From an uncultured virus (IMG/VR IMGVR_UViG_3300025128_000023) (taxonomy: Duplodnaviria; Heunggongvirae; Uroviricota; Caudoviricetes), in the IMG/VR virus record IMGVR_UViG_3300025128_000023: 64,000 bases of DNA; one strand, given 5' to 3'. The notes under the pieces are model-generated. The model made no database searches, was not told where the DNA came from, and worked only from the letters and a program-made list of their open reading frames with translations. Positions 1-63,844 of the stretch are shown here, one piece after another. The translations under genes and the position numbers were made by a program. The first letter of the stretch is position 1. Every line of letters begins with the position of its first letter.

Positions 1-250
1 GAAAGCCCTTTTCCCACTCCACAATATTATAGTTATGTGAAGAGTCATTTCCTTGTTCAATCTCATTTAAATAATATTGTTCTTCCTTTGCACTGGCTTC
101 AATGTTTTCATCAATTCTTTTATTTTGTGCCTCTAAGATGAAGTTATAAAAGCCCATAGCCATAATAAATTCCTCTTCATCTTGGTTGTTTCTTTCTTCT
201 ACTTTAGCATAATATTGCTCCCATAGTAAGTTGAAATCTAAATCTTTCAT
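1..250 (-). CDS. Hypothetical early protein, runs off the window edge
   Basis: Manual translation MKDLDFNLLWEQYYAKVEERNNQDEEEF..., open to position 1; not in the ORF track. Confidence 0.7.
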   Translation of the reverse strand, partial: MKDLDFNLLWEQYYAKVEERNNQDEEEFIMAMGFYNFILEAQNKRIDENIEASAKEEQYYLNEIEQGNDSSHNYNIVEWEKGF

Positions 251-270
251 TTTAATTGTTTTTTAGTGTT

Positions 271-332
271 AAATCTGACACCGAAAAAATCGGTGTTTCG
301 TAGGTGTTTAAACCTTTACTCATCGGAGATTT
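271..332 (-). ncRNA. Type I hammerhead ribozyme (core variant CCGAUGA)
   Basis: Minus strand reads AAAUCU-CCGAUGA-GUA(AA)GGU UUAAAC ACCUAC-GAAA-CACCGA UUUUU UCGGUG-UC-AGAUUU. Stems I, II and III pair; GUC cleavage triplet present. Confidence 0.8.
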
Positions 333-333
333 T

Positions 334-822
334 TTAACTTCTTTCAATTATTTCATCCTCGACTTCTTTTATTAGTTCTTCGGTTATTCTTTGCCCTCTA
401 AAATCACAGATGGCTTTGAGATTATACATCAATTCTTGCCCTCTCCAATATGCATAATGATTTACTAATTTTTCGGCATTGTCAAAGGTGTTGTTTATCT
501 CTCCAAAGTTTTCTTTTTCTTGCTCTTGGCAATATGTAATTAAATCGAATGTATTTAGATTATTTTCTTTTATAAATTGCTCGGCTTGATAATAGCCAAT
601 AATAAAATAATCTTCATTAAATAAATGATGGTGCAAGTCATCAAAATATTGCCCCTCATAATTTTCGATATTATCGGCAATATGATTAATTAAATCTAAG
701 TCGGCTTCTTGTGTGTGTGCATTCATATTAATTGTTGTTTGTGTTGGTTCTACTTTTGGAAATCTTTTTGCTATATATTTTTTTAGCTCTTCCCCTTTTA
801 ATTCTGTTGTTAAATTACTCAT
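334..822 (-). CDS. Acidic early protein, possibly Ocr (T7 gp0.3)-like antirestriction DNA mimic
   Basis: Acidic; DDLHHHLFNEDYFIIGYY resembles the Ocr DDLH...HYY segment; first substantial gene after the early promoter. Confidence 0.45.
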   Translation of the reverse strand: MSNLTTELKGEELKKYIAKRFPKVEPTQTTINMNAHTQEADLDLINHIADNIENYEGQYFDDLHHHLFNEDYFIIGYYQAEQFIKENNLNTFDLITYCQEQEKENFGEINNTFDNAEKLVNHYAYWRGQELMYNLKAICDFRGQRITEELIKEVEDEIIERS

Positions 823-956
823 AGTTATAAATTTAAATTGTTAATAAAGTTTTCTAATTCTTGGCAGTTATTTTGAATGGTTGCAAGTTCCATTTCATAA
901 GATAAATTTTTCATAATGTGTTATAATTAAGTTTTAATTAATTTCTATTTCTGTTC

Positions 957-964
957 CAAAACTA
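957..964 (-). promoter_or_regulatory. Bacteroidota sigma70 -7 element (TAGTTTTG) for leftward early genes
   Basis: Matches TAnnTTTG on the minus strand in an AT-rich intergenic region. Confidence 0.55.
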
Positions 965-1135
965 TGAATAACAATCGGAATAAAAAAATTTATTTCTATT
1001 TTATTTCTAAATTAATTTATAAGTGATTGAGTTACAGCTGTTTATGTCATCAAAAATAGATCTAAAATGGGGTTAATTTGTTTGGGTTTTGTGGGTGTCG
1101 GTGTGGGGTTAAGAGATTCCTCTCTGTGTTTGTGT

Positions 1136-1169
1136 GGGGTGTAAGTGGGGGAAGGTGGGAGAATGGGGG
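1136..1169 (+). other. Canonical G-quadruplex-forming motif in the divergent non-coding region
   Basis: GGGG-tgtaagt-GGGGG-aaggt-GGG-agaat-GGGGG. Confidence 0.5.
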
Positions 1170-1398
1170 AAGGTTAGCCGATAATGAGAGGGAAGGAGAG
1201 CAACAACAAGAGCAGACAAGAGGAGAAGGGAGGAGAGGCAAGGAGGAGGAGGGCAAAAGTTGAAAAAGTTGCAGAAAAAATTTTAAATAGTCGAGGGGGT
1301 AGGCAAAAAAAATCGGTTTTCGATTGGGGGGGTGGCGACTGTAAACCCATATATAACCCTCAACCCCTATGTATCTGAACACATAAAAATATTTTTAG

Positions 1399-1406
1399 TA
1401 TCTTTG
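1399..1406 (+). promoter_or_regulatory. Bacteroidota -7 promoter element TATCTTTG
   Basis: Consensus match 15 nt upstream of ATG 1422. Confidence 0.7.
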
Positions 1407-1961: not shown

Positions 1962-3599
1962 ATGAGCAACCAAGGATATATCCCTAAAGACTTAACCTTT
2001 GATAGCAAAGGCAGACAAAAGCTAATTGAAGGAATCACCAAAATTTCCAAAGCAGTTAAGAGTACACTCGGCCCACGCGGGAAGACAGTGTTAATAGAAT
2101 CCCCTGATCACTTAGGAGGAATTACAATTACTAAGGATGGAGTGACTGTTGCTAAAAGTATTTACTTAGACGATCCAGTTGAGAACCTATCAATTCAAAT
2201 GATGAAGGATGCAGCCAACCGAACCGCAAGTGTTGCAGGTGATGGGACAACAACTGCTATTGTTTTGACTGAGGCTTTGATAAAAGCTGGTAACATTCAC
2301 ATTACTCCCGATATGAATACCACTGAAGTGATTCGACACATAAACAAAGTCAGTGAGTATATACTTTCAGTATTGAAACGAAGAGCAGTCGATGTAGATG
2401 ACAAAGCATTAGTAGAGGTTGCAAGTATATCAGCTAACAATGATGTAGAGATTGGTGAGATAATTAGTAAAGCATATGAAAAAGTTGGGAAGCATGGAAT
2501 CGTTACAGTTGAAAAGTCTATGACTTCGGAAACATATGCGGAAGTTACTAATGGAATTAAAGTAGATAGAGGATATACATCCAACCTATTTATAAACGAC
2601 CAAAGAAAAGATGAATGTATACTTGAAGATGTAAAAGTTTTAGTGTGTGATACTGAGATTAGCAACATACTACAAATTGAAACTATACTTAAACCAATCA
2701 TTCAACAAAATCAAAAGCTACTTATCATTGGACAATGCTCACAAAATGTAATAAACACTTTGGCCGCGAATGTTGTTCGTAATGGCTTGAAGCTATGTAA
2801 TATTATTCCACCAAACTTTGGATATAAGAAAAATGAATTAATGCAAGACATTGCAGTATCAGTAGGTGCTAAGTATTTTTCAGAATCTACTGGTGATGAC
2901 TTGAGTTTGATTACACCCAACGACCTGGGATATGCAGATAAAATTATTGTAGGTAAAGAATCATCAGTAATAATTAAACACAATCAACTTACTGAAGAAA
3001 TAAAACAAAGAATAGAAGAACTAAAAGAACAACAAGAAAACACAAAGCATAATGAAGAAAAGAAATTTATCAATGAAAGGATCGCAAGTCTTAGTGGTGC
3101 AATTGGTTGTATTTATGTTGGAGGTAACAGTGATGTAGAACAAAAAGAAAAATTTGACCGAGTCGATGACTCGGTATGCGCTGTCAAATCTGCACTTGAT
3201 GAAGGTATCATCGCGGGTGGAGGAATAGCCTTGTGGGAAATTGCCGATGGACTTGGTGGAGTTGCACCTTTAGATAAAGACAAGGAAGCATCTAAAGAAG
3301 AAAAGGTTGCATACCACATAATGCATGAAACTATAAGAACCCCTTTAATTCAGATATTAGAAAATGCAGGTAAGGATTATAGTAAGATAACCAACGAGTT
3401 TAAAAAAGCAAAAAACAAAAACAAGATATGTTATGGATATGATGCCAAGAACGAAAAGTATGGAAACATGTTTAAGTTAGGAATCATCGATCCTTTAAAA
3501 GTAACCAAGAATGCATTAATAAATGCAGTCAGTGTAGCGACTACTATACTATCTACGAATGCTATAGTAACTCATGCACGAATAAACCAAAAGAAATAA
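1962..3599 (+). CDS. groEL: Chaperonin GroEL (Cpn60)
   Basis: TLGPRG, ITKDGVTVAK, AGDGTTTA and GIIDPLKVTK motifs; no GGM tail. Confidence 0.97.
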   Translation: MSNQGYIPKDLTFDSKGRQKLIEGITKISKAVKSTLGPRGKTVLIESPDHLGGITITKDGVTVAKSIYLDDPVENLSIQMMKDAANRTASVAGDGTTTAIVLTEALIKAGNIHITPDMNTTEVIRHINKVSEYILSVLKRRAVDVDDKALVEVASISANNDVEIGEIISKAYEKVGKHGIVTVEKSMTSETYAEVTNGIKVDRGYTSNLFINDQRKDECILEDVKVLVCDTEISNILQIETILKPIIQQNQKLLIIGQCSQNVINTLAANVVRNGLKLCNIIPPNFGYKKNELMQDIAVSVGAKYFSESTGDDLSLITPNDLGYADKIIVGKESSVIIKHNQLTEEIKQRIEELKEQQENTKHNEEKKFINERIASLSGAIGCIYVGGNSDVEQKEKFDRVDDSVCAVKSALDEGIIAGGGIALWEIADGLGGVAPLDKDKEASKEEKVAYHIMHETIRTPLIQILENAGKDYSKITNEFKKAKNKNKICYGYDAKNEKYGNMFKLGIIDPLKVTKNALINAVSVATTILSTNAIVTHARINQKK

Positions 3600-42652: not shown

Positions 42653-45600
42653 ATGAATAATAAATATTTAGAACAACTTTATGGATGGATAGACTCAAAG
42701 GATAGTTCTTTTAGTGGAAGATACAAGCTGGAAGACTTCGTTACCAATATGGATAATGAAGAGTATGCAGTAAAGATGTATGAGTGGATAGCAAAGAAAG
42801 ACCCCACATTTCAAAAAAGATACACCTTAGACCTTTTCATTGAGAAGGTAAAAAAAAAAGATTTATCTCCCGACGATCCTATATCAGAAAGCATGGACGA
42901 TGCTGGACTTGGGGAAGATTCGGAAGAACAGGGTACAGTGTCACCCTCTATACCTTCTGTTTCCCAACCTTCAGAAGGAGAAAGTATTGAATTTGATGAG
43001 GAATCATTTAGTATAAATGAAGGAGAAGTAGACAAAGAAACATTCCAAGAATATGATGAGCTACAACAAGAGGAACAAAAGATAAGTGCAGATCCTTTTG
43101 AGAATGCACTTAACAATATTACACCCGAATTATTAGCACAAGATGAGGAAGAGTTAGTTCCTGACTTAGCCTACAGATTTGAAAGATATGGCTTTAAGTT
43201 TGACCAAGCAGAAATATTTAGGGACTTCGTTAAAATTTCTTCAGACCAAATCGATCCTACCACTGGTAAGCCTTACGAAATCAAAGTTAAGGTAGATAAC
43301 AAAGATGAAGCAAAAAACCTTCAAGCTGCAAAAGATATCCAAGACTTTATTAGAAAGTATCAAAAGGTAGATACCAGGTTTGAAAAAACCGAAAAAAATT
43401 TAGCAGTAAAAGACAGATTACTTCAAAGTGATGCCGAAGTTGAAAACCAGTTTAAAATACTAAACATTGAAGCAGAAGCATTTAATAACAGAGTACAAGC
43501 TTATATAAAAAAGAGAAGAGTATATCTACAAAAAAAGGCACAAGCAGACAGTCTAACTCAAGAACAAATCAATACAGATATTGGTCAAAGATTCTTAAAA
43601 GACTTAGAACAAGCAAGAGTAATGTTAGATGGTGAAAAAGCAGATTTGTATGCACAGGATGCGTCACTAACAAATAGAGGGTATGAGATAGATATGTTGG
43701 TGGGTAAATACTCTGAGATGAAAGCTAAAAAGGGTAGTTTCTTAGGAGCTACATGGAATGGTATTACTTATGGTATATCAAGAATGTCTGAGAGTTATAT
43801 AGACTATGGTATTACTGCTATGGTAAATGCTATGCCATTTAGCATGATGCTTGGTCAACCTCAATATGAAAAGTCATTTGCTAAGAGAGCTGAAGAGTTA
43901 GGTTTCTTTAATCCTGATGATATAAAAGAACCTTTTGAAAGTTTTGAAGCATTTAAACAATCTTTTTCTCCCGAACAAATAAGTGAAATAAATGCTTATA
44001 TCGAAGACAGAGTATTAAAAAGCAGTAAGTATGATAACATAGAATTTAATGATGATGGTTCAATAACTACTAAACAACTCGATGCTGGAACAAGATACTC
44101 TGATTCATACCTAAAAGATAATATTGGTAAGCTTACTGAAGATGGTATGATGAATTTAGTTAGAGAGGGATATATGATGGCTATTGGTAATGAATCCACT
44201 ACTGCTGAATATAGTGATATGATGAGAGAAGGATTTTGGGGTGGAGCATGGTTAGGACTTGCCGAATCTCTTCCAGCTTTTATTGGACCAGGTGGTTGGG
44301 TAGGAAGAACAGCAAAAATGTTTGCACAAGTAGATAGTCATTTACGAGATGAAATGATGAGAGATCCTGACTTTGCAGATATTAGTGAAGCAGAAAGAAA
44401 AGCAGTAAGCCTTCCAATTGCAGTTACAGTAGGAGCTTTAGAGTATTTTGGTTTGAGGAATGTAATGAATCAAAAAGGTTTACTAAATAAATATGTCTTA
44501 AAAGGATTACAAAAATATAAAGGTGCACATCAAACTCAAGGATTGACATTTAGACAAGTGGTATTAAATGAAATAGAAAGTGATATAGCAAAAGGAGTTC
44601 TTATTATTGGGGCAGGTGGATTAGCAGAATTTGAAACTGGTGTTGCTCAAGAGATAGCTGATATCAGTGGTAAAGTGATTTACAATGAAATCAAAGAGAA
44701 AGACATGTTTCAAACACCTGAATCAGTTAGAGATGCTATTGGACAAATTATGTATGCTGGAGCACAAGAAGCTGTTGGTGGTTGGGTAATGAGTACAGTT
44801 CCTGCAGTTGCTGCGGGTTATGTTGGTAAAGATTATACAGCCATATCCGATCCTATGTTTGAAACTTTTGAAGATATAAGTAATGATGGTACTTTCTATA
44901 AAGCATATGTTCAAAAAATTAAAAATGATATTAACAAGGGTGATATTAATAAAGCAGAAGGGCAGTCTTTGTTAGATGCAGTACAAGACATAAGAGGTAT
45001 AGTACCTAAAGTACCTCAAGACCTCGACACAGAAAGTCGAAAAAAAGCTGTAGGTTTGTTATATAATAAAGCCATCTTACAAAGACAAAGAGAAGCCATT
45101 GCTCCTGAGTTAAGAGGAAAGATAGATAAAGAGATAGGGAAAATTGATACTCAGTTAAAAAATTTAATTGAAGGGGCGAGTGCAGTTAAAGGTACTGAAG
45201 CTAACATCGAACAAGAAGAAGAGATTACCGATACTCAAGCAAAACAGTACATAGAAAAAGAAAATAAAACAAGGGTTAAGTTAGGTTTACCCCCTATAAA
45301 GATGAGCCCTAAGTCTATTGAAGAAGCTAAAGTTGAATTAAAAAAACAAAGAGATGCCAGTAAAGAGCAAAGCCCAGTTCAGGAAACTGGCGAAGTCGAA
45401 TCCCAATCTACTGAAGAAGTGGCTGAAGGAGTACCCGACCCAGTATCAGAGTCTACCGGAACGAGTAACCAAAAAGGCAAAGGTAAAGTTACCCCGAAGA
45501 AAGAGGCGGAAATAGAAGAAGAGGTTGGTGATATACAAGAGTTTGTTGGAGAAACCGAAACTGAAACCGAAGGAGATGTAGTTACACCAACAACTGAGTT

Positions 45601-48600
45601 AGGAGTACAAGAAGAAGTAGATATTGAAACAGAGAATGTTACCAAAGATGGTAAAGTAAAAAGAAGTAAATCTACTACACCAATAGAGACTGAAGTAGAA
45701 GGTAAATTTGATGGTATAGTTAAATTTGCAACTCGAGCTGCAAAAGCAGTCAAAAGAATATTACCTAAAGTAAATATAGTTTTACATGAGTCATCTGAAA
45801 ACTTTCAGAAAGCCACTGGTAAAACTGGTAGAGGTTTCTATAATCCTACAGATCAAACCATACATGTTGATTTAACAAAAGGAAGCAACCGAACAGTTGC
45901 TCATGAAATGTTTCATGCATTGTTATTAAATTCTGTTAAAACTAATGCACAGGCAAGAGAGTTAACTAAAAGAATGGTAAAAGCAGTTGCTAAAGCAAAA
46001 GGTTTAACTAAAGAACAGAAACAAAAGATTGATAACTTCATTAAAAACTATGATACTGATATACAGAATGAAGAGAAGTTAGCAGAAATATTAGGGGTTT
46101 TAGCCGATGGTTATACTAAATTAGATGCTCCTACTAAAAGTAGAATTAGACAATGGGTAGAAAAGATTGCGGCTAAATTAGGTCTTGACATATCATCCTT
46201 TACACAATCAGATCAAGACATAGTTGATTTAATGAATACTGTAGCTCAGAAGATTAGAACTGGAGAAACTATTACTCAAAAAGATGTTAAGGCTCTCAAG
46301 CCTAAAAAGAAAACGCAAAAGCAAAAAGTCAAAGATGTATTGGGTAAAGTTGAAGTTGCTACTATAAAACAAATCACAGAGATAACTGGTTTACCTGAGC
46401 CTACTGTAAGAAGAATATTAGGACAAGGAGCAAAAAGTGGTGAGCTTTCAAGAGTTGCGGCAGGTGTATACACATTAAAAACTAAAGATGGTAAGACTGC
46501 GGCAGTTGTTCAAGGAGCAAATGCTTTGGCTGAAATAAAAAAATTAGTCAAAGAAGGAGCTAAGTTTGATATGATATTCTTAGACCCTCCATACATAATA
46601 CCAGGTGCTCGTGGTGGTAACAGAAACTTAACTAAATACAAACTTATATCACCAGAACAATTCAATGAGTTTGTTGGTGATGTTGTTAAATTACTACAGA
46701 ATCCCGACACACCAGTATTCTTTATGTTTAGTGCATCTAAGTCTAACAAAAAACAATTAGCTAAATACTATGATGCGTTTACTAAAAATGGATTGAAACC
46801 TTCTTCAGTTGCTGCACAGTTTGGTAAACTGGACAAACAAGGTAAACCTAAACAGATGTTCGGTATACCATTGAAAGAATGGATATTTGCATTTAGTCAA
46901 AGTGGTAATCAAAGAACTGATATGGACTTCAGTTTTGATAGAGAGTATGCTTTTGGGCAAGACTCTAATTATCAAACTGCCAAGCCTGTTGCTTTGTTAG
47001 AAGCTATTATAAAAGCATCTACTAAAGCTGGTGAGTTGATACTTGATCCATTTGCTGGTAGTGGTTCGACCGCAAAAGCTGCAGTAAAAACTGGCAGGTC
47101 TGTAGTGACAATAGAAGAAAATGTAGAACAAGCAGAAAACATTAAGAAAGAAGTAAAGCAAGAACAACAAAAGAAAAAAGAAAAAGGAGATCAGTTAGAT
47201 ATCTTCGAAGGCAGAGAACAGAAAGAATCTAAACCCATAGCCGATAGGTATATGATGAGTGCTCGTGGATTTATAAACCCAAGAGCATTGTTTGATACTT
47301 CAAAACTCAGAAGAGAATTAGAAAACATTGGAATGAGATTAGGAACTGCAAGGAATGAGTTTACTGGTGAGATAACTGGTTACTATTTCCAAAAGGTTTC
47401 AAAGAGAGGTAAGCCATATTTTTATAATCCATATGGTAGACAACAAAAAGATATTGATAAAGCGGGAAGTGGTATTTCCAACATTGCAGAACTTATAGTA
47501 AAGTTGAGAGAAACTAACTTTAACCCTGAAGCTATCAAGAAATATTTGTTAGAAAAGAAAAAGATAGCTACTAATGTAGTTAACAAACTAACTGATGCCA
47601 GTACATTTGTATTGAGTAGAATGCCTGAGTCATTCCAAAAACTAAAAGGTGGATTCCTTACTGGTGTAAGACTGTTTGAAAAAATATCTAAGTACAAAGA
47701 CAGACTAACCAACACTAACTTAACTTCTTATGGCAAATCAATAGTAGAATTACAACAAGAGTTAGAAGTTTTACAATCTCAGAAAAATAAAAAGAGAGCT
47801 ATTGCAGCTAAACAAAAAGAGATAGATAATTTAAAAGCAAAAAACCCAGGAGCTAAAATATATAAACTCACCAACACTGAGATAATGACTAAGACTATTG
47901 AGTTTATGAGAAAACAACCTGAGTATATAGCTGTTAAGGATAAGAAAGGATTATCTGTGCTACAAGCTCAGATGGAGATGCAGTTAGAAAAATCTTTCTA
48001 TCAAGCTCCTACTAAAGATATGGCTAATCAAATTAGATTGGCAAGAGCTGTAGTAAACATGCAAACTAAAAATGTTAAGAGTTTGGAGAGGGTAAAATCA
48101 GCTTTAAGAAACTTTATAAGAGTGGTATTCCCTGCAGATATGTATACTAAACCCGAAACATTAAAGTTAGTACAAGAGGTTCAAAATGCAACTTTAGAAA
48201 ATATAAAAGAAGTAAAATCTAAGTTAATGGATATGGCAACAACAAAAATTGTCAAAGGCTTAGAATCAAAGATTGAGAAATTATTAAATAAAGACTTTGC
48301 TAAGGTAGAGGGTGGTAGATTAAAAGCTAAGTTGGTAGACTCACAAACTATAAAACTATTAGAGCAAGTTAAAAGTATTTTTAGTAATGTTCGAAATATA
48401 AAAGATAATCCAAAAAAGATTGAAGCATTAATTCAGAAAAATTTAGATAGAATAGGTAAGTTACAGTCTCAGTCGCTTCAAAACGAAAATACATTTGCAG
48501 AGATTGCTGCATTGGAAATGATTAATGATTATGCTAATACACAGTTGGAGGAAGACTCCAGCTTTGAGAAAGTAGCAGGTTTAAATAGAGTTTTCGAACA

Positions 48601-51157
48601 GTTAAATGAAACAGTAAATGAAGGAAGAAACACATTAGAAGCACAGAAAAGAAGAAGATATCACAGATATCTACGAGACATTGAAATTGCTTGGGAAAGT
48701 ATCACTGGCAACAAAATAGAAATGTTAGTTCCTAATACTAACTACGATCCCCAGTTACCTGAGACTAAAAGTAATTTGAAGATGGTGGTAAACCCTGATG
48801 CTAAAAACATCATGAAAGAGTTTCAGAATCTTACTGATGCAAAGAAAAGACAAGCTAAGTCATTACCAGCTCGAATGGTAAATAGTATAACTGGATGGAT
48901 TAAAAGAAATCAAATAGCTAACATAATGGACTTAACTACTCTTGTTGAGTATATCACTAAAACTCCTGGTAGAATATTTGGAGGTCCTTTCCAAGATATT
49001 ACTGCTCGACTTGTTGATGATGCATCTATAGTTCATAAAGGTTTTCAAATGGAAGATAGAGCAGAGATTGAAACTAATTTACAAGAGATATATGGTAAAG
49101 GGTGGATAGGTAAAATGGAAAATGATTCTTTACTTAGAGATACTGGTATAGCTACAGACTTAGATAAATATAACAAAGCTAAAGCTGAATACAATAGAAA
49201 CAAAACACCTGAAAACAAAATAAAAATGGAGGCTTTACAAATTCATTTATCTCCATACCAAATGGCTTATCACCTAAATCAATATAGAGATCCTGCAAAC
49301 CATGCTTCATATGAAGCTAAGTATGGCAAAGATTATAAAAGAGTAATGAAAGAGATGAGAGAATATATGGAGGCTAATAATTCAGAGGCTTTGGTGTTAG
49401 CTGACTATATGGTAGAACAAGCATATCCAAGATTGTATGAGAGATATAATAAAACCTATAGAGCAGTATATGGTATGGACTTACCTTGGAGTAAAAACTA
49501 TGGTGGGCAAATATTTAGAGAGGGAGTAGAACCAGGTGAAATTAATTTATTAGCTGATGGAGGAGGAGCATTTGCTGGAATGGCTGCACCATCCTCATCA
49601 AAAGTTAGAAGTAAAAACAAGATACCTATTAGAGATATGGATTTGATGAGAAGCTTTATAGCTTATCAAGAACAAATGAACTGGTTTGCTGCATATGCAC
49701 CATCTTTAAATAGAATAAATAAATTGTTTAGAAACCCTAACATAAGCGAAGCTATTGAATCACAATACCCTGATGGTTTTTATAACATGATACTAAATCA
49801 AATAGAAACTTTAAACACTAAAGGTATCAGTAGCACTCGATCAGAACAGTGGTTGAACATAGCAACTACTTACTTTGTAGTAGGTAGGCTTGGTGTGAAC
49901 CCAACTATCTTCTTGAAACAGTTAGTGTCCTTCCCTACATATGCGAATGATATAGGTTATAGAAACTGGAGTAAAAATGCAGCTCTGAGTATAGGAGAGA
50001 TAAGGACTTTAATTAAAGAAATAATGAATAACTCTGTGTATATACAAGACAGATATGGTAAAGCTATAATTAAAAACTTAGAAAACTTTGTACCGAGCTC
50101 TGACTTCGAATCGAAACTGACTACTGGTACATTCCAAAAAATACTTGATGGAACTATGTGGTTGGTAAAACAAGGAGATAAGGGAGCAATACTTATTGGT
50201 GGAGTACCATTGTATAAATATCATAAAAATAAAATAAGAAAAGAAAACCCAGGTCTTACTGAGCAACAAGTGATTGATAGAGCTATAAGAGAATTTGAAA
50301 TAGCAACAAGACAAACACAGCAGTCTACTGATTTACAAAACAGAGACTATACACAAACAAGAGGTATCTTCCAAAGGACAATGAATATGTTTAAAACCTC
50401 TATCAGATCTTATTTAAGAAAAGAAATTATATATGGAAGAAATATGTATAAGATAATAAGATCGTTTGGTAAAGAAGGAAGAGGTACATTCGGACAAAAC
50501 TTGAGAGGATTATTTACTTATCATGTGGTGCTTCCAGTATTCTTCCAATACTTGTCGGCTGGACTACCTGGTGTATTAGCACCATGGGATGATGAAGATA
50601 AAACTGATCTTACAAGAGCAGCTCTTATTGGTAACTTAAATGCATTGTTTGTTATGGGTGATATATTAGCAATGTTTGCTGATGCTATTACTGGCAAACC
50701 TTGGGAGGCAGATGTAACCGACATACCATTTATTGAACAAATGGAACTGTTAGCTAATTTAGTTAAAAGAATTGAAACCACAGAAGATGAAGAAAAAAGA
50801 AAAGAACTTTATCAGAAGTTCTTTATGGAAGACTTACCAGGTTTCTTTGGTTTAAACTTAAAATCTCTTAAAAGATACAAGAAGAATATAGAACAAATTA
50901 TGAAGGATTCTTCAGATCCTAAAGAAGTTTTATTAAGATTGTTTAACTTTAGTGAGTTCCAAATAAAAAGCGATGAAGAAAGAAAGAGAAAGAAGCCAAA
51001 GAAAATGAGCAAGAGTGATTTGAAAAAATATTTCCCTGAACTCTACAAACAGATAGAAGAAAAAAGAAAGATGCCTGATGATGTACAAGATCAGATAGAT
51101 AAAATTAAAAGAGAACAGAAAAGGTTAAGAGAAGAAGCATTAGAAAAATCATCATGA
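42653..51157 (+). CDS. Giant polyvalent/ejection protein with zincin-like HExxH, winged-helix and N6/N4 DNA methyltransferase domains
   Basis: HEMFH at ~45902; wHTH at ~46340-46480; DPPY at 46583; KPVALL...ILDPFAGSGST at ~46980-47070. Confidence 0.8.
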   Translation: MNNKYLEQLYGWIDSKDSSFSGRYKLEDFVTNMDNEEYAVKMYEWIAKKDPTFQKRYTLDLFIEKVKKKDLSPDDPISESMDDAGLGEDSEEQGTVSPSIPSVSQPSEGESIEFDEESFSINEGEVDKETFQEYDELQQEEQKISADPFENALNNITPELLAQDEEELVPDLAYRFERYGFKFDQAEIFRDFVKISSDQIDPTTGKPYEIKVKVDNKDEAKNLQAAKDIQDFIRKYQKVDTRFEKTEKNLAVKDRLLQSDAEVENQFKILNIEAEAFNNRVQAYIKKRRVYLQKKAQADSLTQEQINTDIGQRFLKDLEQARVMLDGEKADLYAQDASLTNRGYEIDMLVGKYSEMKAKKGSFLGATWNGITYGISRMSESYIDYGITAMVNAMPFSMMLGQPQYEKSFAKRAEELGFFNPDDIKEPFESFEAFKQSFSPEQISEINAYIEDRVLKSSKYDNIEFNDDGSITTKQLDAGTRYSDSYLKDNIGKLTEDGMMNLVREGYMMAIGNESTTAEYSDMMREGFWGGAWLGLAESLPAFIGPGGWVGRTAKMFAQVDSHLRDEMMRDPDFADISEAERKAVSLPIAVTVGALEYFGLRNVMNQKGLLNKYVLKGLQKYKGAHQTQGLTFRQVVLNEIESDIAKGVLIIGAGGLAEFETGVAQEIADISGKVIYNEIKEKDMFQTPESVRDAIGQIMYAGAQEAVGGWVMSTVPAVAAGYVGKDYTAISDPMFETFEDISNDGTFYKAYVQKIKNDINKGDINKAEGQSLLDAVQDIRGIVPKVPQDLDTESRKKAVGLLYNKAILQRQREAIAPELRGKIDKEIGKIDTQLKNLIEGASAVKGTEANIEQEEEITDTQAKQYIEKENKTRVKLGLPPIKMSPKSIEEAKVELKKQRDASKEQSPVQETGEVESQSTEEVAEGVPDPVSESTGTSNQKGKGKVTPKKEAEIEEEVGDIQEFVGETETETEGDVVTPTTELGVQEEVDIETENVTKDGKVKRSKSTTPIETEVEGKFDGIVKFATRAAKAVKRILPKVNIVLHESSENFQKATGKTGRGFYNPTDQTIHVDLTKGSNRTVAHEMFHALLLNSVKTNAQARELTKRMVKAVAKAKGLTKEQKQKIDNFIKNYDTDIQNEEKLAEILGVLADGYTKLDAPTKSRIRQWVEKIAAKLGLDISSFTQSDQDIVDLMNTVAQKIRTGETITQKDVKALKPKKKTQKQKVKDVLGKVEVATIKQITEITGLPEPTVRRILGQGAKSGELSRVAAGVYTLKTKDGKTAAVVQGANALAEIKKLVKEGAKFDMIFLDPPYIIPGARGGNRNLTKYKLISPEQFNEFVGDVVKLLQNPDTPVFFMFSASKSNKKQLAKYYDAFTKNGLKPSSVAAQFGKLDKQGKPKQMFGIPLKEWIFAFSQSGNQRTDMDFSFDREYAFGQDSNYQTAKPVALLEAIIKASTKAGELILDPFAGSGSTAKAAVKTGRSVVTIEENVEQAENIKKEVKQEQQKKKEKGDQLDIFEGREQKESKPIADRYMMSARGFINPRALFDTSKLRRELENIGMRLGTARNEFTGEITGYYFQKVSKRGKPYFYNPYGRQQKDIDKAGSGISNIAELIVKLRETNFNPEAIKKYLLEKKKIATNVVNKLTDASTFVLSRMPESFQKLKGGFLTGVRLFEKISKYKDRLTNTNLTSYGKSIVELQQELEVLQSQKNKKRAIAAKQKEIDNLKAKNPGAKIYKLTNTEIMTKTIEFMRKQPEYIAVKDKKGLSVLQAQMEMQLEKSFYQAPTKDMANQIRLARAVVNMQTKNVKSLERVKSALRNFIRVVFPADMYTKPETLKLVQEVQNATLENIKEVKSKLMDMATTKIVKGLESKIEKLLNKDFAKVEGGRLKAKLVDSQTIKLLEQVKSIFSNVRNIKDNPKKIEALIQKNLDRIGKLQSQSLQNENTFAEIAALEMINDYANTQLEEDSSFEKVAGLNRVFEQLNETVNEGRNTLEAQKRRRYHRYLRDIEIAWESITGNKIEMLVPNTNYDPQLPETKSNLKMVVNPDAKNIMKEFQNLTDAKKRQAKSLPARMVNSITGWIKRNQIANIMDLTTLVEYITKTPGRIFGGPFQDITARLVDDASIVHKGFQMEDRAEIETNLQEIYGKGWIGKMENDSLLRDTGIATDLDKYNKAKAEYNRNKTPENKIKMEALQIHLSPYQMAYHLNQYRDPANHASYEAKYGKDYKRVMKEMREYMEANNSEALVLADYMVEQAYPRLYERYNKTYRAVYGMDLPWSKNYGGQIFREGVEPGEINLLADGGGAFAGMAAPSSSKVRSKNKIPIRDMDLMRSFIAYQEQMNWFAAYAPSLNRINKLFRNPNISEAIESQYPDGFYNMILNQIETLNTKGISSTRSEQWLNIATTYFVVGRLGVNPTIFLKQLVSFPTYANDIGYRNWSKNAALSIGEIRTLIKEIMNNSVYIQDRYGKAIIKNLENFVPSSDFESKLTTGTFQKILDGTMWLVKQGDKGAILIGGVPLYKYHKNKIRKENPGLTEQQVIDRAIREFEIATRQTQQSTDLQNRDYTQTRGIFQRTMNMFKTSIRSYLRKEIIYGRNMYKIIRSFGKEGRGTFGQNLRGLFTYHVVLPVFFQYLSAGLPGVLAPWDDEDKTDLTRAALIGNLNALFVMGDILAMFADAITGKPWEADVTDIPFIEQMELLANLVKRIETTEDEEKRKELYQKFFMEDLPGFFGLNLKSLKRYKKNIEQIMKDSSDPKEVLLRLFNFSEFQIKSDEERKRKKPKKMSKSDLKKYFPELYKQIEEKRKMPDDVQDQIDKIKREQKRLREEALEKSS
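45354..45515 (+). CDS. Overprinted small basic protein (53 aa) in the +1 frame
   Basis: MPVKSKAQFRKLAKSNPNLLKKWLKEYPTQYQSLPERVTKKAKVKLPRRKRRK; A-rich leader; locally raised GC. Confidence 0.6.
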   Translation: MPVKSKAQFRKLAKSNPNLLKKWLKEYPTQYQSLPERVTKKAKVKLPRRKRRK

Positions 51158-63473: not shown

Positions 63474-63602
63474 TTAAATTGTTATACCTAAAAAGAATAC
63501 TGCATAAGACATATACACAATGCCAAAGCATGCTAATGTTCCCAAGATCCAAGCTACTCCCATAAAGAAGTAGTGTGTAATAATACTGATTTGATTTTTC
63601 AT
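63474..63602 (-). CDS. Small membrane protein (42 aa)
   Basis: Manual translation MKNQISIITHYFFMGVAWILGTLACFGIVYMSYAVFFLGITI. Confidence 0.6.
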   Translation of the reverse strand: MKNQISIITHYFFMGVAWILGTLACFGIVYMSYAVFFLGITI

Positions 63603-63621: not shown

Positions 63622-63698
63622 ACATTGACTTTCATTTGAAGGGGAGGCAACCTCCCCCATTTAAGTTTCGCCTTGCTCTCAAAGGCTCATCAGAATGT
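63622..63698 (-). ncRNA. Type I hammerhead ribozyme (canonical core)
   Basis: Minus strand reads ACAUU-CUGAUGA-GCCUU UGAGAGC AAGGC-GAAA-CUU...GGGGAGG UUG CCUCCCC...AAG-UC-AAUGU; GUC cleavage site. Confidence 0.92.
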
Positions 63699-63700
63699 TT

Positions 63701-63844
63701 CTAATCGTAAAATTTGTGACCTTGATTCTCGTGCCAACTATTAAAGGCATTTGGATATTCTCTCATCACATAGTTGTGAAGGTCCATCAACTCCTCGATT
63801 TCTTGTATCAATTCTTTTTTACTCATCTTTTTATAGTAATTCAT
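63701..63844 (-). CDS. Small hypothetical protein (47 aa)
   Basis: Manual translation MNYYKKMSKKELIQEIEELMDLHNYVMREYPNAFNSWHENQGHKFYD. Confidence 0.65.
   Translation of the reverse strand: MNYYKKMSKKELIQEIEELMDLHNYVMREYPNAFNSWHENQGHKFYD

Follow-up and report, generated by a model that had tools for sequence, protein, structure and literature searches.

A type I hammerhead ribozyme with a U-to-C change at core position 4 between two small genes of a marine tailed phage

The role of self-cleaving ribozymes in phages and bacteria has been described as 'largely elusive' (review, PMC6765202). The locus described here raises a specific question: does an RNA motif that lies between two small genes of a tailed phage, and that has the complete layout of a type I hammerhead with a C where the core consensus has a U, represent a genuine ribozyme, and what would the C mean for its function? 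We examined the motif in the 64,000-nt stretch of phage DNA under analysis (the window), together with its relatives in viral and metagenome contigs and published hammerhead cores.

The motif is found on the minus strand at 332..271, with stem I open. In reading order from 332 to 271 it consists of AAAUCU / CCGAUGA / GUA(AA)GGU-UUAAAC-ACCUAC / GAA / ACACCGA-UUUUU-UCGGUGU / C / AGAUUU. The TAA stop codon of the upstream 162-aa ORF (334..822, minus strand) occupies 334..336 and lies 1 nt (333) before stem I, whose 5′ strand (327..332) and 3′ strand (271..276) form 6 bp. Between these strands, the core segment C3-C4-G5-A6-U7-G8-A9 (320..326) is followed by the stem II hairpin (300..319; 3+3 bp around an AA bulge), the core letters G12-A13-A14 (297..299), which are invariant in our alignments A2 and A4, and the stem III hairpin (278..296; 7 bp, including A15.1 at 296 paired with U16.1 at 278). 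C17 stands at 277, and from the sequence the cut is predicted between 277 and 276. The 3′ strand of stem I, an assignment supported by sequence, descriptor and covariation, would thus be the 5′ end of the downstream fragment. This fragment begins with a 26-nt A-rich leader (276..251) and continues into the ATG (250..248) of the next ORF in the ORF list (2..250), which runs off the window. The stop codon ends 7 nt before C3, and the predicted cut lies 26 nt before the ATG.

Apart from position 4, all core letters are those of the consensus: C326, G324, A323, G321, A320, G299, A298, A297, the A296-U278 pair, and C277 (H17, not G). At position 4, in the uridine turn, C is found at 325 in place of the consensus U. 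We take C4 as a deviation within the hammerhead family and not as a ground for exclusion, because documented natural exceptions still self-cleave (PMC3088659, PMC9608096). The fixed AA bulge and the A-rich loop of stem II are candidates for a tertiary contact with stem I, which itself has no bulge. A sequence-only reading of this DNA had already drawn a second hammerhead here, and its stems, core, cut at 277/276 and distances to the TAA and the ATG are correct in every detail.

The other hammerhead of the window, at 63622..63698 on the minus strand, has the canonical core CUGAUGA. It starts 2 nt after a TAG stop codon (63701-63703), and its predicted cut lies 25 nt before the ATG at 63602. The earlier proposal that the element at 271..332 is not a recent duplicate of this copy is borne out, since the two have no stem sequence in common and recent duplication is thereby ruled out. 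The base of stem III in the 63622-63698 copy is only 4 bp and encloses a G+C-rich hairpin, GGGGAGG-UUGC-CCUCCCC, that a simple scan calls terminator-like on the opposite strand. In one related viral genome (G003), a hammerhead with the same stem I as this copy (ACAUU/AAUGU) and other stems II and III precedes a similar small gene.

Relatives of the 271..332 element were gathered with a pattern for its stem II (GATGAGTAAAGG..CCTACGAAA), which fixes that stem. It matched at 10 loci of viral contigs and at 66 of metagenome contigs, all of which share the stem II helix, the signature of the family, as the pattern required. A strict fold test was passed by 63 of the 66 metagenome loci, representing 38 distinct sequences; in the remaining three, either the stem III loop is 2 nt long or stem II has a single mismatch. 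The family is type I in nearly all its members. Two loci (L015 and L281) are type III, that is, circularly permuted, hammerheads whose stem II hairpin is identical to that of the type I members. Across the family (L009-L018, L276-L341) the 20-nt stem II is near-constant, with one or two loop letters varying, and stems I and III are wholly replaced between loci. This constancy is partly ascertainment by the search pattern; beyond that, recombination or a tertiary contact with the stem I minor groove could explain it. In one locus (L332), with every stem intact, core position 3 is A and not C (AUGAUGA); this is probably a disabled copy or an error.

Compensatory changes were counted in an alignment of the family members with short stem III. 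A first MAFFT alignment that included long stem III inserts (A1) lost its register at the 3′ end and was set aside. There are 28 distinct short-stem-III sequences, of which 21 were aligned with the window (A3) and seven were left out for length (L285, L294, L299, L301, L305, L308 and L321). Four more were dropped because MAFFT had shifted their 3′ ends (L276, L326, L312 and L010), giving alignment A4 of the window and 17 relatives. All 321 of 321 pair cells in A4 are standard pairs, in rows pre-selected by a descriptor that demanded at least 4 pairs in stems I and III. Both sides have changed in 10 of the 18 pairs, comprising 6/6 in stem I and 4/6 of those counted in stem III, with stem II invariant as the pattern required. 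The covariation score was 0.597 vs 0.139 in shuffles and was reached by 0 of 500 shuffles; in slid registers, only 28-40% of cells pair.

The distance from predicted cut to ATG is 19-31 nt, with a median of 24, in 38/38 distinct family members, and from the end of the upstream stop codon to C3 the median is 6 nt in the 29 of 38 members in which it could be measured. Since both distances are tight, the ribozyme and its short A-rich leader fill the whole intergenic spacer. The window element shares this placement, starting just after a stop codon with its predicted cut within 19-31 nt of an ATG. When window positions 246-342 were compared with L334, L335, L325, L288, L320 and L302, we observed the same stem I hammerhead and leader in flanks unlike the window genes (blastn and tblastx, ~170 nt per side). 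It seems that ribozyme and leader move as a unit without the genes beside them, or that they lie at the joints where genes are shuffled.

Could such a motif arise by chance? A type I descriptor applied to both strands of the 64-kb window matched exactly twice, at 271..332 and at 63622..63698, and a scan of the same window for type II hammerheads found none. Among 400 first-order Markov random 64-kb sequences with the dinucleotide statistics of the window, the position-4 variant occurred 0.015 times per sequence at a loose threshold, and with stems as long as those observed it occurred in 0/400. A covariance model (R1) was built from the 16 relatives that remain when the window and the C3-to-A variant L332 are removed from A4. 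This model scores 271..332 on the minus strand at 83.2 bits (E 9.9e-25) from end to end (1-62), more than any other of its 14 matches in 297 kb. A chance motif is ruled out by these two results.

Curated models do not see the element. Rfam gave 0 matches at gathering score over the whole window, and no hammerhead family on 150..450 even with E up to 10. Recognition of the canonical copy (63622..63698) is hardly better, with 27.7 bits for Hammerhead_3 (gathering 48.5) in the wrong register, and we therefore conclude that the Rfam models miss this family of marine-phage hammerheads as a whole. The silence of Rfam is a blind spot of the curated models and is not counted against the motif. A point against the motif is its folding energy, which is near but above the minimum free energy (MFE): for the 62-mer the hammerhead fold has -12.5 kcal/mol, 1 kcal/mol above the MFE, and it stays within 1-2 kcal/mol for the 62-mer and with 10- or 25-nt flanks. 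With 50-nt flanks it lies 5.9 kcal/mol above the MFE, and the z-score of the local fold is only -2.34. By anatomy, homology and covariation in relatives, 271..332 is a genuine type I hammerhead.

The window, the genome of an uncultured marine tailed phage, has a G+C content of 33.6%. Its plus strand carries GroEL, the large terminase, the portal and structural genes, and its minus strand carries replication and recombination genes along with many small ORFs. The GroEL-type chaperonin lies at 1962-3599 on the plus strand (phrog_5725, E 7e-134), and on the same strand 42653-51157 codes for a 2834-aa protein, one segment of which resembles a DNA methyltransferase. A long low-complexity pyrimidine-rich tract (C/T on the minus strand) is found at ~1100-1330, in a gene-poor region between divergent gene blocks; it is odd at 34% G+C and could mark an origin or a terminus or have a regulatory role. 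For the large terminase (TerL), identity is 80-85% to three viral records of 55-67 kb with same-family hammerheads, and ~43% to podophages of Flavobacterium, Cellulophaga, Tenacibaculum and Maribacter. With a terminase closest to podophages of Flavobacteriia, the phage probably has a marine member of this class as its host.

Each of the window's two hammerheads has small minus-strand ORFs, probably early genes, on either side. Type I hammerheads occur in the equivalent small same-strand gene block of three related genomes, with two in G002, two in G003 and nine in G005. The nine in G005 (L269-L272; ~60232-64638 and 249-669 of a 64.7-kb record) stand before nearly every small gene, and in most cases a conserved leader with AAAACUAUCAAnnAUG at its end comes next; eight of the ribozymes have a stem II of the GGAU..AUCC type and one of the GUAAAGG type, and a stretch of N interrupts one stem III. 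The nearest record (G001), a fragment of 44 kb, lacks both the locus and any hammerhead. A blastn search with window 1-1400 against phage records gave no match, a search of viral contigs for relatives of the 162-aa protein found none, and tblastn with both flanking proteins found none in G001, G002, G003 and G005. Orthologs of the locus came only from the metagenome pattern scan. Scans for terminators and sigma-70 promoters near the element found no terminator and one weak promoter-like site, inside an ORF.

The 162-aa product of the upstream ORF had been labelled 'Ocr-like', a label of which only the acidity holds up (D+E 32 vs K+R 15). No similarity to Ocr or ArdA was found in Pfam, PHROGs, PDB sequences or the ESM Atlas. 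Pfam gave no family above cut-off, with only DUF234 below it; the PHROGs match is phrog_10208, of unknown function; PDB sequences gave 0 matches at E up to 1; and the ESM Atlas gave no usable match, the protein's own model having a pLDDT of 0.47.

We then asked whether the C at 325 is real. Twenty runs from 15 studies of marine metagenomes contain most of window 1-1400. In the contigs of all four runs that we compared (four studies, 2017-2022), positions 271-332 are identical to the window, with the reservation that one of the four may be the window's own source and that contigs hide rare variants. These contigs differ from the window only at 40, 91, 122, 418, 1031 and 1337. An error of assembly or sequencing at 325, or a look-alike arising by chance, would account for a single-base deviation in an otherwise perfect motif and for the silence of Rfam. 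We consider this extremely improbable, because the same letter recurs in contigs of 4 runs from 4 studies and because the random sequences (0/400) and the relatives' model (E ~1e-24) speak against a look-alike. The core change is thus real, as the sequence-only reading had supposed pending a check for assembly error.

The polarity of the change is also clear. Relatives that share stem I AAAUCU/AGAUUU have U4 in 8/8 cases. These include a positional ortholog (L283), 90.0% identical over window 97-527 and homologous on both flanks; two further loci, L300 (87.7%) and L295 (72.5%), have the upstream gene in common with the window. L334 has the same stems as the window element and differs from it only by U4, one letter of loop III and one extra stem I pair. 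Across the family, positions 3-4 are CT in 65/66 metagenome loci (AT in L332) and in 10/10 viral loci, with C4 in 0/66 and 0/10, and a C4-specific family pattern found 0 loci in metagenome contigs, where the window's own records may be left out. With U4 in all eight same-stem-I relatives, including the positional ortholog, C4 is not conserved: it is a real and young single-base substitution, specific to this phage lineage, in which it recently arose from U. Conservation of the core, which had been named beforehand as a check on the element, therefore holds in part; the rest of the core is invariant in the relatives, and C4 itself is not conserved.

Because C4 is unique within the family, selection normally keeps U at this position. 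This bears on the possibility that the hammerhead was recently disabled, the U4-to-C change having ended useful cleavage so that the two genes stay on an unprocessed bicistronic RNA and the element is at most an inert structured spacer. The absence of C4 from 76 other family loci and from the eight same-stem-I relatives is what would be expected if selection removes it, and U4C 'considerably decreases activity in vitro' according to Perreault et al. (PMC3088659). Early genes and their ribozymes also turn over fast, the flanking genes being without homologs in three related genomes and the hammerheads varying from 2 to 9, and the singleton C3-to-A change of L332 demonstrates that the loci sampled include damaged copies. 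Besides C4, the only difference between the ribozyme and its nearest relatives lies in loop III; too little time has passed for decay or compensation to become visible, so the intact stems are no proof of continued function. Against a disabled element stands the presence of C4 in the contigs of all four runs compared, across four studies and the years 2017-2022; with most of the stretch contained in 20 runs from 15 studies, C4 is not strongly harmful. We regard recent loss of function, the main rival to a working ribozyme, as possible, though not probable, and the occurrence of C4 in other hammerheads also argues against it.

These occurrences come first from a second phage family, with stem II GUAUYUGAAAAUURAUAC, for which the list of 22 viral loci is complete. 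Six of these loci have C4 and 16 have U4. The C4 copies stand in two different stem I/III contexts, and in one of these the stem I strands CCACC, CUACC and CCAUC all still pair with GGUGG. C4 thus persists in this family in two stem contexts with pair-preserving changes. One C4 member (L003, the same as L350) has a weakened stem III. Loci L181/L344 and L217/L347 have the same stem I and a similar stem III; what separates them is U4 vs C4 and a compensatory change from C-G to U-A in the top pair of stem II. A tie between C4 and this U-A pair was considered and rejected, as two U4 loci also have U-A.

Wider pattern searches were each taken as a sample of 80 loci that gives fractions and not totals. 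With positions 3-4 left free (80 loci of at least 118 stretches), the loci that fold as a hammerhead are 8/10 for CT, 3/5 for CC, 0/5 for CA and 0/5 for CG, with a marginal 1/55 for the other dinucleotides. A C4-specific pattern (80 loci of at least 121 stretches) yielded at least two further C4 hammerheads, L083 of type III and L087 of type I. The patterns fixed the other core letters and so give no ranking of C4 tolerance relative to other core transitions; U-to-C is, moreover, a common type of mutation. Judged from these sequences, C4 is tolerated elsewhere as a minority state and is compatible with maintained hammerheads.

U4C is known in print from a PLMVd variant (peach latent mosaic viroid; Ambros and Flores 1998, as cited in PMC3088659 and PMC9608096), Navarro et al. 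describe a CCGA core in CtaHVd-LR1 (PMC9608096), and CCGA cores are reported in zeta viruses and betaviroid-like RNAs (2026 preprint, bioRxiv 10.64898/2026.09.16.752053). C4 thus persists in replicating viroid-like RNAs that depend on their ribozymes (PMC9608096, bioRxiv 10.64898/2026.09.16.752053), a further point against a change that ends cleavage. No inactivating mutation at U4 came out of an MS2-based selection (PMC4075628). Our literature search for C4 in hammerheads of DNA phages found none; the CCGA papers concern viroid-like RNAs.

Taken together, we favour, with a probability of about 60%, a working but slower type I hammerhead that separates two cistrons of a small-gene operon. Cleavage, its rate and its consequences for the two mRNAs are what we infer here, with the anatomy, homology, covariation, U-to-C polarity and independent samples as the observed basis. 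The RNA would fold during transcription and cut itself after C17, between 277 and 276. Hammerhead chemistry leaves a 2′,3′-cyclic phosphate on one side of the cut, here 277, and a 5′-OH on the other, here 276. The upstream fragment would carry the 162-aa ORF and the whole ribozyme body as a structured 3′ end terminating in the cyclic phosphate, and the downstream fragment would carry the 5′-OH, 26 nt of unstructured A-rich leader and then the ATG. The weak, A/U-rich 6-bp stem I would let the fragments part. Two cistrons would in this way become separate mRNAs with separate fates and different stabilities; different stabilities have been proposed for bacterial hammerheads in general (PMC6765202). 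The downstream gene would then be translated from its A-rich leader, which would fit a host among the Bacteroidota. Members of this phylum largely do without Shine-Dalgarno pairing.

The expectation of a slower ribozyme comes from the structure of the core. U4 belongs to the uridine turn, and C lacks the N3 proton. The phosphate between A6 and N7 interacts with U4 (Perreault et al., PMC3088659). With this contact involving U4 and no N3 proton on C, a slower ribozyme is to be expected; the most likely effect of C4 is loss of the U4 contact in the uridine turn, which would slow the ribozyme without killing its activity. Translation may add to this effect. The stop codon ends 1 nt upstream of the element, so terminating ribosomes would cover stem I and the core; under such ribosomes a slow ribozyme may rarely cut, and the penalty may be larger in vivo than in vitro.

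A special case of the slower ribozyme, raised by the sequence-only reading, is that C4 is itself an adaptive setting, in which a lower cleavage rate gives partial processing and sets the ratio of processed to unprocessed RNA. The recurrence of C4 in unrelated phage hammerheads and viroid-like RNAs would fit such a role, as would the fixation of the allele in the sampled population of this phage. C4 is, however, conserved neither at the locus nor in the family, and recurrent U-to-C change is also expected from mutation bias with mild tolerance. We find tuning of this kind quite unlikely.

A broader proposal, also unlikely, is that the hammerhead and its fixed 19-31 nt A-rich leader form a portable expression cassette in marine Flavobacteriia-type phages, with C4 as a natural 'slow' setting. 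The cut would make the 5′ end of a short-leader mRNA without a Shine-Dalgarno sequence, and the speed of the ribozyme would set translation of the downstream early gene. As the same ribozyme and leader are found beside unrelated genes, the invariant 32-nt centre could also be a recombination joint for early-gene shuffling.

The locus matters in three respects. The U4 alleles (L334, L283, L300) and the C4 allele of the window have identical stems, providing a clean natural experiment on the cost of C4. The tight spacing from cut to ATG and the arrays of up to nine copies per early operon make it possible to test whether cleavage is tied to expression of the gene that follows. Finally, curated models miss this whole family of marine-phage hammerheads.

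Among known systems, the placement of the element just upstream of a start codon resembles that of the type I hammerheads that fungal and plant RNA viruses have in their 5′ UTRs, where the cut creates the 5′ end of the translated RNA (PMC13725137). Cleavage enables translation initiation in those viruses (PMC13725137), which serves as a working analogy for the 19-31 nt spacing. However, the RNA-virus system is eukaryotic, cap-independent and experimentally tested, whereas ours is bacterial and its spacing is an observation only.

The closest counterpart for a core deviation in a phage is the A6C hammerhead of Bcep176, likewise intergenic and with a single change in the uridine turn (PMC3088659; Naghdi et al. 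2020, PMC7151607). Its activity and metal preference were measured in that work; the activity is low but detectable, so that a core change can alter a phage hammerhead without abolishing it. The window element differs in that its deviation is at position 4 and not 6, and in that it is known from sequence alone. For the substitution itself, the counterparts are the viroid-like hammerheads described above (the PLMVd variant, CtaHVd-LR1, and the zeta-virus and betaviroid-like RNAs), in which CUGA has likewise become CCGA in an otherwise canonical core. In these RNAs, as reported, U4C is a minority variant among U4 relatives and the replicon stays viable. Unlike the window element, which is type I and lies between cistrons of a dsDNA phage, they are type III and serve rolling-circle processing of RNA replicons.

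In its setting, the element is most like the intergenic hammerheads of phages and prophages (Perreault et al. 2011, PMC3088659), which are small self-cleaving motifs between co-directional genes of polycistronic phage transcripts. As in that set, several can occur per genome, here two in the window and nine in G005. Some of the hammerheads described there flank anti-restriction genes, and rare single core deviations are tolerated; the phage core variants named in PMC3088659 are A6C, A6a, U13a, U3-A8 and U15.1-A16.1, and not C4. The family of the window differs from that set in being type I, with stem I open, short and perfectly paired and with a bulged stem II that is fixed (GUAAAGG...CCUAC), and in being missed by Rfam. 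Intergenic phage hammerheads (2011) and U4C in viroid-like RNAs were thus both known already, and the window element is a further case.
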